A stretch of 64,000 nt of DNA, from contig OZ024740.1 in NCBI GenBank assembly GCA_964016885.1, positions 267,592,001 to 267,656,000 of the forward strand, read 5' to 3'. The notes beneath the pieces are model-generated. The model did not search any database. It had not been told where the DNA came from and saw nothing but the letters and a program-made list of their open reading frames with translations. The translations under genes and the position numbers were made by a program. The DNA comes from Eledone cirrhosa (Eukaryota). This document shows positions 3,110-58,024 of the stretch, one piece after another; position 1 is the first letter of the stretch, and the number at the start of each line of letters is the position of its first letter.

Positions 3110-3592
3110 AACAGAATAAATGGAGGAGAATGCAATACCTTTAAAACCAAACTTTACATCTATACAATAGCGAGTAACAGTTCACACATATATTTGTGCA
3201 TGTGCGCACACATATACATTGTTGTTAATGATATTAATATAGAATCTTCAGAGAAGAAAGAATTGTTTATATTGATATTATTTGAGGTTAGTCCAACTAA
3301 TCATTCTTTGGATAAAAATTCCTTTAAAAGGAGAGTTAAATAGATGCTTAATCTTCTAAATATTAACCTTTCTATAATATTTAACACAACACCCCTAAGC
3401 ATTGAGCACACCTCGCTTCAGCTATTGTCGTCTAGTATACTGAATCACACGTTTTTCTCTCTCCTCCTTTCTTATGATACATAGCTCTTCTTTAATAACA
3501 TCATCATTATCATTATCGTTTATGTCTATCTTCCACGCTAGTATGGGTTACATATATATATATATATATACACACACATACATATATATATA

Positions 3593-3995
3593 ATAATTGT
3601 TTCTGCGTTAGGCACAAAGCCAGCAATTACCCAGTGCATTACTGGTACTTTATTTTATCGACCCCGTAAGGAGGAAAGGCAAAGTCAACCTCGGCGGGAT
3701 TTGAACTCAGACCGCAAAGGGACGTAACTATGCTGGAAAGCATGGCGTCCGACCCTCTACTGATACTGCCATAATAGTTGTTTCTACTTTAGGCACAACG
3801 CCAGTAATTTGAAGGCGAGGGGAAAGTCGATTAAATCAACACCAGTGCATTACTGGTACTTTATTTTATCGACTGCGTAGGGATGGAAGGCAAAGCTAAC
3901 TTCGGTGGAATTTGCACTCAGAACATAAAGGCCCATAACTATGTCGCTAAGCATGTTGTCTGACGCTCTACCGGTTCTGCCAATCCACCACCCTT
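3593..3995 (-). mobile_element. Two tandem SINE family A copies (short and long subfamily)
   Basis: Reverse-complement match to SINE A consensus at ~3593-3770 and ~3775-3995. Confidence 0.85.
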
Positions 3996-4169
3996 AATAA
4001 TAATACTACTAACAATGATAAAGAGTAGGAATGAGGTATCAAAATATCATCATGTTTATTCATGTGCGACATGTGTTTCACAATCAATCAACTTAAGGTA
4101 CAATCAGTATCAATTGCATCCGACTCTGGAATCAATAGCTCATCAGATTCATGGTTTCTTTATATATAA

Positions 4170-4213
<44 letters not shown>

Positions 4214-4260
4214 TTATTTACATACTCACATATATATATATATTTACATCACTCACACAT

Positions 4261-4292
<32 letters not shown>

Positions 4293-4588
4293 GGATAGAG
4301 AATTGGAAAGAAAAATAAACTGTAGGAAACGGCTAAACAAAGATGCTATCACCAAAAAATAAAAGGGGGGGGGGGGGGGGCGAATGGCAAGAAATGAAAG
4401 AAAGAGAAAATGGAAATGTTGAAGAGGTGGCAATTTGATAATTCCAATGTGAACAGAAGCAACTGGTGTATGCTAATGAAGACACTGTTGCATGGAATAC
4501 TCAAAATGAAAACTATACAGAGGATAGCAATTGGCACATGCTGATAAAATACATTTTCACATGAATTGTTTGAAGAACATGTAATGTA

Positions 4589-5206
4589 TCATATATACTC
4601 AAATATAAACTGATCTGAATTATGAGCCCCCCCCCCCCCATTTTATGTCTGAGAAATGCGCCAAATCCAAATCCCATTTCTAAGCCAAAGCAGCTAATCA
4701 ACACATTGTTTAGATGGTGAATATAACATTTTAACATTGATTTCTTTTTTTAGGGGGGTCACATAATCCTGGTAGTGAGACATGGGCAGCAACTTTGGAG
4801 GATATACGGCGGCTGAAGAGAAATGAAGCAAGCATGCTCCAATGGATGTGCAAAGTCAATGAACGACCAAGCATAGATGAGATGAGAGAGAAACTGTGTA
4901 TAAGCGGGATAAGCTGTAGTGTGTGGGAGAGAAGACTGCTTTGGTATGGACATGTGATGCACATGGAAGATGACAGCTGGGTGAAGAAGTGCCAAGAAAT
5001 CCTGGTGGAAGGAAGTTGCAATAGAGGAAGACCACGAAAAACATAGGTGGAGGTGGTGAGAGCTGACCACAGATCACTGAAGCTCACAGAGGATCGTAAC
5101 ACATGGAGTGATGCTGTGCTGAAGAGGAACCATTCTACCCTTGCAAGCAGGGAAAAGTGGATGTAAAATGATGATGAATCCCCGGCTTATATTCAAGTAT
5201 ATACAG
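4589..5206. mobile_element. Tc2/pogo-like MITE interrupted by an RTE insertion
   Basis: TIR-like ends TA|TCATATATACTCAAATATAA ... TTATATTCAAGTATATACAG|TA; interior homologous to 59359-59547. Confidence 0.7.
4770..5176 (+). mobile_element. 5'-truncated RTE-clade LINE 3' end
   Basis: Translation GSETW...RLKRNEASMLQWMC...RRLLWYGHVMHM...RGRPRKT; (GAT)n tail; AATCC duplicated on both sides. Confidence 0.9.
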
Positions 5207-10695: not shown

Positions 10696-10737
10696 CATGC
10701 ACACACATATATATATATATTATTTAATATAGAAATG

Positions 10738-10787
10738 GCTTCTACAGGACTAGAAATGTTTTATTCGAAGGAAATCATCAGGAAAGC
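10738..10787 (-). ncRNA. Type I hammerhead ribozyme motif (decayed; GAAA reads AAAA) in a (TA)n-flanked element spanning ~10721-10866
   Basis: Minus strand reads gctttc-CTGATGA-tttccttcgaat-aAAAC-atttctagtcct-GTA-gaagc; homologous to both arms of 57321-57434. Confidence 0.65.
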
Positions 10788-10943: not shown

Positions 10944-10989
<46 letters not shown>

Positions 10990-10990
<1 letters not shown>

Positions 10991-11177
10991 CGAAGGAAAT
11001 GTGGTAAGGAACCAAGTGGACCATAACGCACCAAAGTACTCAATACTTAGGGTAGTAGAGTGGGTAATAGGAACGAGTAGGACCCCGACGGCTGAGCTCA
11101 AGCCGTTTCGACGGCTAATTCAGTCCAGAATTAGCCGTTGAAACAGCTTGAGCTCAACCGTCGGGGTCCTACTCGTT

Positions 11178-11182
<5 letters not shown>
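10990..11182 (-). mobile_element. (TA)n-embedded fold-back element: palindrome 11067-11182 plus unique tail 10990-11066, containing the 3' half of a hammerhead
   Basis: 55-bp arms with 3 mismatches and a 6-nt loop; minus strand reads ...GCCGTC-GAAACGGCT-tgagctc-AGCCGTC-GGGG; (TA)n on both sides. Confidence 0.75.
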
Positions 11183-48740: not shown

Positions 48741-48983
48741 TATTAGAAATGTAATCTATCGCCGTATTTTGACTAAAGAAATGACAGAAATTATTTAGCC
48801 TGATAGTGAGGTTAAGAACCCTCGGAGAAATGGAAAAAGATGAGTATCTTTTTCCATTTCTCCGAGGGTTCTTAACCCCACTATCAGGCTAAATGATTTC
48901 TGTAATTTCTTTAGTCAAAATACAGCGATAGCTTACATTTCTAATAATTTCAAACCCACTCGCTGTTTTGAAAATATTCTTAC
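48741..48983 (+). mobile_element. (TA)n-embedded fold-back element: palindrome 48741-48946 plus 37-nt tail
   Basis: 101-bp arms, 4-nt loop (gagt), about 5 mismatches; (TA)n on both flanks. Confidence 0.8.
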
Positions 48984-57320: not shown

Positions 57321-57328
<8 letters not shown>

Positions 57329-57434
57329 GGCTTCTACAGGACTAGAACTATTTCATTCGAAGGAAATCATTAGGCTTTCCTGATAATTTCCTTCAAATGA
57401 CACAGTTCTAGTTTTGTAGAAGCCATTTCTATAT
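57321..57434. mobile_element. (TA)n-adjacent fold-back element with a hammerhead motif in each arm; its tail is interrupted by the Helitron and resumes at 57938-58000
   Basis: Imperfect ~55-bp arms; plus strand 57374-57423 reads gctttc-CTGATAA-tttccttcaaat-GACAC-agttctagtttt-GTA-gaagc; homologous to 10721-10787. Confidence 0.7.
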
Positions 57435-57440
57435 TAAATA

Positions 57441-57937
57441 CTAGCAGTGGTACCCGGCGTTGCACAGGGTAAGGTATTTTGGAACATGGGCCGCCAAACA
57501 GACCTAATCGTGGAAAAACTGCATGCCTGGACAATATGTAAAGAAAATAAACCGAATACTCTGATGGATGGATAATCTTTAAGATTTTCCTCGATGAAGC
57601 AGGAAAAATGCAGGTTTTCACCTAATGCGAGCCCTAGGCCATAAAAAAGTTGGTTTTTCTTTCCTCATGGTATGACTAATACATAGTTACAATTTCAAGG
57701 AAACGGTCTGATGTAACGCCTCAAAAAACCCCTAAAAAGCTGAAAAAACCGCAGTTTTTCACCTAATGCGAGCTGTAGGGGATCAAAAAGTTAAATTTGT
57801 TATGTGCATAACATTCACTGAAACATAAATAATACACATGTAAAGTTTGAAAAAAATCGGTTGGGTACTTCTCGAGTTTTAGGGATTCAAACTCACAGAC
57901 ATACACACACAGACATCCTCAGTTTTATATATAGAGA
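57441..57937 (-). mobile_element. Non-autonomous Helitron
   Basis: Minus strand begins TC(tctatatataaaac), ends with a GC-rich hairpin-like ccctgtgcaacgccggg and CTAG; inserted between A and T; internal repeat ttttcacctaatgcgagc twice. Confidence 0.85.
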
Positions 57938-58024
57938 TTTATACTCTGCTATGTATTGAGTATCTTACTTGGTGTGGTTACCCCCGATTGAACCCGGGAT
58001 ACACATACATACATACATACATAA

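Follow-up and report, generated by a model that had tools for sequence, protein, structure and literature searches.

Hammerhead ribozymes in the pseudo-LTRs (pLTRs) of Penelope-like elements (PLEs), the Hydra clade included, are already published. In the survey of Cervera and de la Pena (2014, PMC4209133) they are described as type I motifs within the pLTR that occur mostly as scattered singles, with some close opposite-strand pairs, a palindromic stem III region and predicted action as dimers, and the hammerheads described here resemble them in each of these respects. Low, dimer-dependent activity is reported for metazoan PLE hammerheads (PMC4209133; PMC6765202). Among the C-terminal EN+ PLEs, hammerheads are reported for the Hydra clade, for which the supplement lists a cephalopod family, Hydra-1_Obim; the same account describes the role of PLE hammerheads as unclear (Craig et al. 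2021, PMC8557442). In work on the green anole's Poseidon element (Frangieh et al. 2024, PMC11167929), purified PLE protein extended both target strands, working with unprocessed RNA, and its two internal initiation sites set the bounds of the tail.

Here we describe a hammerhead found in 64,000 nt of the genome of Eledone cirrhosa (contig OZ024740.1, positions 267,592,001 to 267,656,000 of the forward strand; "the window" hereafter means this whole stretch). The host genome is 3.0 Gb in size and rich in microsatellites. What the window holds is an expected feature, a decayed PLE hammerhead.

Two decayed insertions in the window

Positions within the element are numbered from the first base of stem I (+1). 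The relevant features of the window are as follows.

57325..57374, minus strand: left arm of a palindromic insertion, short and tail-less, with the hammerhead from about +6 to +56
57373..57424, plus strand: right arm, a type I hammerhead relic, with stem I at 57373-57379/57419-57424 and the core from 57380
57425..57440, plus strand: element sequence 3' of the hammerhead, reaching roughly the first of the family's two preferred 3' ends (+67)
57441..57937, plus strand: later insertion of an unrelated 497-nt repeat, sitting between A and T without target duplication
57938..58002, plus strand: remainder of the right arm, a tail of about 65 nt (element 5' UTR) that stops at the second preferred 3' end
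10721..10787, minus strand: separate tail-less copy spanning +2 to about +68

An earlier note on this DNA had placed hammerhead sequence at 10787-10738 (minus), 57374-57423 (plus) and 57374-57330 (minus), with a different core mutation in each copy, and we found all three stretches at these coordinates and strands, each with its own damage to the core. The count of three copies was too high, however: a single insertion supplied both copies at 57.3 kb as its arms, which leaves two that are independent. The left arm, which terminates in a (TA)n run, carries the core lesion G5A at 57371 and has no 5' strand of stem I. The right arm has two core lesions (G8A at 57385 and A14C at 57401) as well as changes in stem II and stem III, and its predicted cut falls between 57418 and 57419. 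In the copy at 10787-10738 the core lesion is G12A at 10762, accompanied by one change in stem III. Neither window locus can fold an intact core. A PLE open reading frame (ORF) is absent from the window, the copies are not arranged in tandem as the units of non-LTR retrozymes are, and the 114-nt region around the palindrome folds as a plain hairpin (-60.9 kcal/mol). The right arm is interrupted at 57440 by the 497-nt repeat and resumes at 57938, and a CA/TA run adjoins its end at about 58002. The interrupting repeat, presumably Helitron-like going by its end motifs, gave 3,492 first-look candidates in the genome, 40 of which were scored; it contains an internal 55-nt direct repeat.

Other repeats were seen in the same window. 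At 10989-11180 lies a second abundant repeat, unrelated to the hammerhead family (2,598 first-look candidates), of the same build, i.e. a head-to-head palindrome with a tail on one arm and TA flanks. Its junctions cluster about 30 nt below a TATTTA box, and it contains GAAAC, a palindrome centered on GAGCTC and GTC, while CUGANGA is absent; a longer copy had no Rfam match. On its sequence features, this repeat may be a PLE end with a non-canonical ribozyme. Long near-perfect hairpins at 2838-2998 and 48795-48892, which gave sub-threshold matches to microRNA families, are probably other inverted repeat insertions.

A hammerhead family with intact genomic copies

The complete type I core (C3 U4 G5 A6 N7 G8 A9, G12 A13 A14, A15.1-U16.1 and H17), found in none of the three window copies, is present in the family to which they belong. 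The 50-nt majority consensus that the earlier note had assembled from decayed copies is, letter for letter, a genomic copy elsewhere (locus L066); as intact copies exist, no reconstruction was required. Among 30 loci picked by upstream sequence alone, three had the unchanged consensus and eight an intact core (L064 is among those without), and the genome-wide consensus retains CTGATGA and GAAAC. The exact 24-mer from CUGAUGA to GAAAC had 1,214 genomic matches, a sister form with a different loop II had 10,768, and the exact core plus stem II with loop II left free had 25,814; the reversed control of each had 0.

Two subfamilies, 74% identical over the start of the ORF, have in common the core, stem II and the entire 16-nt stem III segment, with stem I swapped on both strands. 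In subfamily A, to which the window copies belong, stem I is GGCUUUC/GAAGCC with a bulged U, or a bulge-less variant; in subfamily B it is AGAUUC/GAAUCU. The earlier note gave stem I as GCTTTC/GAAGC; in its subfamily the helix is one of 6 bp with one bulged U. Across 184 intact-core copies, a sample partly selected by core patterns, conservation was 42-58% in loop II columns and 95-99% in stem III loop columns. Subfamily B is younger than A; the core is kept in 49/60 B arms that reach C3 versus 21/34 in A.

Searches against Rfam returned no hammerhead family for the window among 150 of the 180 matches, and none for a palindromic copy or, at E ≤ 5, for an intact copy. Since Rfam is blind even to an intact copy, this check is uninformative here.

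The parent Penelope-like element

The suggested PLE origin was borne out by the position of the motif, which lies in a pLTR upstream of an ORF for a reverse transcriptase (RT) and a GIY-YIG nuclease. In subfamily B (L098/L187), the ORF for the RT with C-terminal GIY-YIG nuclease begins about 136 nt after the predicted cut; the hammerhead likewise directly precedes the ORF in subfamily A (L090), and A-type nuclease ends were found upstream of the pLTR in L075 and L083. A reading of subfamily A as a 420-nt non-autonomous unit standing alone was dropped, since such A-type ORF pieces adjoin A copies. The ORF carries YRDD and YIG motifs and has 596 unnamed homologues. Its only Pfam match was a sub-threshold one to GIY-YIG (E = 0.015, with none at 0.01), and a search of solved structures with the ORF gave no match. 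None of the element copies examined was fully intact, L187 having a frameshift and stops.

Loci L122 and L123 show a hammerhead-bearing pLTR, together with a tail on one side and inverted copies truncated at the 5' end. The L187 translation contains RWR and DKT motifs, and L122 contains a CxCX5C linker, CxxC and CxH, each of which is present in 23-25 of 27 aligned proteins. TA runs adjoin the majority of arm ends, as judged by eye in a genome rich in such runs. By these motifs, on which the clade label rests, the element carries the diagnostics of the Hydra clade, in favor of which a Neptune clade label was dropped. On the minus strand of L125, positions 3587-4630 hold the 3' portion of a further PLE ORF of like type that shares 35-43% identity with subfamily B; other related PLE families therefore exist in the same genome.

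Covariation and strand bias in relatives

Related ORFs (∼40% identical) were examined in 78 metagenome loci, drawn from the best 80 of 463. The hammerhead motif was present on the ORF strand in 56/78 and on the opposite strand in 2, compared with 0-1 per shuffle over 20 shuffles; the core positions were part of the search pattern, yet this excess shows that they are kept. In a hand-picked subset of 20 upstream copies, the cut site was 84-185 nt before the start codon in 17, with two of the remaining three at 356 and 390 nt and one lacking a long ORF. In the same subset a second hammerhead copy often lies downstream of the ORF. Stem III in the Eledone family is a 16-nt segment with an 8-nt loop, in contrast to the 8-10 nt usual among these relatives.

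A search that used core letters only, with no pairing demanded, gave 50 distinct hits in 48 loci. Stem I was Watson-Crick paired at 190/200 positions, with all four kinds of pair represented (500 reshuffles: mean 71, maximum 91), and positions 10.2-11.2 and 15.3-16.3 were paired in 50/50. The type I topology proposed for the window copies is thus upheld, with three stems round the core, open at stem I and supported by covariation. Position 10.1/11.1 was U-U in 25 hits, G-C in 17, G-U in 5 and A-U in 3. The U-U that the earlier note had pointed out there is the commonest state in this clade (25/50). With half of the relatives sharing it, the U-U pair is normal for the clade. Type I members usually have a pair at 10.1-11.1, mostly G-C, where this family has U-U; natural U-U at this position is reported, as the mismatch best tolerated there (PMC3088659), so as far as that source goes it is a tolerated natural variant compatible with type I membership. 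The relatives (L269-L346) include groups of hammerheads with stem II of 2 to 11 bp, among which both U-U and G-C recur. Standard scans can miss these hammerheads, as the clade-wide U-U and the Rfam non-detection indicate, and L269-L346 provide a ready set for the covariance model that Rfam is missing.

Predicted folding and activity

In prediction, the catalytic fold of the monomer has a free energy of -4.2 kcal/mol against minima of -6.7 (A) and -7.6 (B) kcal/mol, i.e. 2.5-3.4 kcal/mol above the minimum, with a probability of about 0.001. The stem III region is predicted to pair with itself at -12.8 kcal/mol as a dimer and at -1.4 as a hairpin. In the best predicted dimer, stem II is paired in a shifted register that occupies the GAA of the core. 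Two natural tandem units were predicted at -14.9 as a double hammerhead versus -8.1 as two monomers, with another fold at -21.1. The hammerhead is likely to cleave only weakly and as a dimer. Lunse et al. reportedly described PLE hammerheads that cleave as dimers.

Insertion ends, a putative promoter and a proposed mechanism

Arms were sampled by 17-mers downstream of the cut (13,166 and 8,206 matches), of which the first 73 (B) and 71 (A) were taken, giving about 130 insertions, all from the start of contig C1, with 5' ends scored once per insertion. Two 3' ends are preferred, at about +67 or about +133. Of the 67 B insertions, 25 extend upstream beyond -10, and the other 42 have their 5' end in the interval from -10 to +51. 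In 33 of these 42 that end falls at -3 to +10, and in no case does it lie within 2 nt of the first base after the cut. Among A insertions, 8/63 extend upstream and 55 end inside the same interval (-10 to +51), 27 of them at -3 to +10 and 4 within 2 nt of the cut; the A peak is broader, with 9/71 arms ending at +41 to +49. The concentration of 5' ends at the first bases of stem I, with none at the cut site in B, suggests run-off copying of uncut transcripts. Uncut templates need not mean that no cleavage occurs, as cut products could be lost. Thousands of young insertions of this kind constitute a natural record of where reverse transcription began and ended.

In both subfamilies the start of a TATA box precedes stem I by 30 nt and C3 by 36-37 nt, and upstream of it are CCAAT and CACCC boxes. 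RNA polymerase II follows a spacing rule between TATA box and transcription start. In relatives, TATA[AT] was found 33-43 nt before C3 in 20/44 motifs, compared with 1-8 in six control windows, and was lacking in 24/44, although this window was picked after the data were seen and the relatives are not independent; the 44 were what remained of 52 distinct motifs once duplicates, poor hits and short flanks were dropped.

We consider it likely that the stretch at 57.3 kb is a dead head-to-head PLE mini-insertion whose hammerhead, itself likely weak and dimeric, likely formed the first 51 nt of the transcript, with uncut RNA as run-off template. A CCAAT/CACCC/TATA promoter in the pLTR would start transcription at the first base of stem I, and the element protein would nick both strands of a (TA)n target. 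Internal sites near +67 and +133 would then serve as the two starts of reverse transcription. On an uncut transcript started at +1, both cDNAs would extend 60-130 nt to the 5' end of the RNA, run off there and be joined head to head, yielding a hammerhead palindrome with a tail on a single arm. Copies inserted in this way would then decay. The one Penelope promoter studied, in Drosophila virilis, is described as internal and TATA-less (PMC2377424), so a TATA promoter in the pLTR would be a difference between clades.

The 5' ends at stem I might instead reflect RT pausing, or fold-back of the cDNA through a GG/CC mini-hairpin, on longer read-through transcripts that start elsewhere. Read-through templates do exist, as the 25/67 B insertions that pass the predicted start show; 25/38 B arms ending at -3 to +10 were flagged as inverted, short GG/CC microhomology at many junctions could bias inversions to the start of stem I, and the internal position of the D. 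virilis promoter fits a start elsewhere. However, the same stop at +1 to +3 is seen in non-inverted arms next to (TA)n, a point against fold-back, the main rival, as the only cause. A block by structure would be expected on entry into the fold (+51), not on exit from it, and the TATA spacing is kept in both subfamilies and enriched in relatives. We regard this explanation as rather unlikely.

Slimmer still are the prospects of a reading in which the selected fold mainly binds protein or controls translation in the 5' UTR, with cleavage rare or never occurring. It would account for the zero B insertions that start at the cut site and for the poorly populated catalytic fold, and in the anole element core mutants are reported to be without effect on in vitro insertion, with no reads ending at the cut (PMC11167929). 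Nevertheless, all catalytic core positions and the NUH triplet are kept across proteins only ∼40% identical, and the same source reports that the anole motif was cleaved once protein was added. To a chance likeness within a non-coding repeat or miniature inverted-repeat element we give practically no credence: the lack of an Rfam hammerhead match and the plain hairpin of the 114-nt region would fit it, but it is refuted by the covariation and strand bias and by the fixed position before a PLE ORF, and the unequal 3' ends of the arms and variable junctions are unlike fixed terminal inverted repeats.

A hammerhead satellite and a wider reading

Subfamily B also occurs as a satellite of 78-nt units in tandem, whose junction sequence had 1,800 matches on one strand and 3 on the other; this array explains the strand excess of the genomic motif counts. 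On contig C28 the satellite starts near 30,496,740, next to a tailed inverted arm of the usual kind. All 8 six-kb probes as far as 30,856,000 are filled by it, and the 5 probes from 30,900,000 on lack it; if continuous, it would extend over about 360 kb and comprise about 4,600 units. The core was kept in 450/603 sampled units (75%), and no selection on the core within the satellite was detected (2.4% versus 3.2% per site, P = 0.15). At C1:350,200,260-350,200,850, eight further units follow one another with this same junction. Both arrays consist of tandem units that each carry a hammerhead, as non-LTR retrozymes do. Contigs from two runs of one study, matched to an element copy, showed joints of the head-to-tail kind and, immediately upstream of the hammerhead, loose ends; it was these contigs that led to the satellite, so they are not independent support for it, and they show no start or splice site. 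No RNA data set among public runs was listed as containing the element, which has no bearing on its expression.

A more general scheme is conceivable, if doubtful. In Hydra-clade PLEs, a TATA promoter in the pLTR would start the transcript at the first base of the hammerhead, and cleavage would strip the capped 5' 45 nt and retire the RNA from transposition, acting as a dimer-dependent, concentration-sensing brake. Only uncut RNA would be copied, run-off would explain the tens of thousands of solo and head-to-head hammerheads in animal genomes, and one insertion would have grown into a satellite of thousands of units.

Comparison with known systems

A literature search that covered few subscription papers found no published link between insertion junctions, transcription start and hammerhead, and no prior report of the junction pattern, the clade-wide U-U or the satellite. 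The element corresponds to the Hydra clade (PMC8557442) in having a single ORF of <3 kb with RT and C-terminal GIY-YIG, RWR (for RWK), DKT (for DKG), a CxCX5C linker, and CxxC and CxH around conserved E and N. It likewise has (TA)n targets, a hammerhead, inverted 5'-truncated copies and a one-sided tail. Its tail is about 65 nt, in contrast to the 30-40 nt given there, and it has a pLTR, whereas Hydra-1_Obim is noted as being without one. No hammerhead variant, junction map or promoter is given in the parts of that account dealing with the clade. Relative to the hammerheads of PMC4209133, where G10.1-C11.1 is described as highly conserved, helix II as long and A9 as followed by an extra base, the family described here has U-U at 10.1/11.1 and a stem II of 3 bp.

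Although Poseidon belongs to another clade (PMC11167929), its tail too is bounded by two preferred 3' ends, its targets too are AT-rich and, as far as the published account goes, there is likewise no sign of cut RNA as template. Its hammerhead overlaps the start codon and its RT start sites lie within the ORF (PMC11167929), whereas both sites in the element described here lie in the 5' UTR. The junctions suggest that the templates were uncut and had their start at the ribozyme, in agreement with this one in vitro study. The C28 array resembles non-LTR retrozymes (Cervera and de la Pena 2020, PMC7229834) in being a PLE-derived run of type I units. Its 78-nt unit falls within the range of 51-972 bp given in a recent retrozyme preprint (Li, Clavereau and Pollet 2026, 10.64898/2026.07.22.740005), and its estimated number of units, if the array is continuous, compares with a maximum of 300 reported there.
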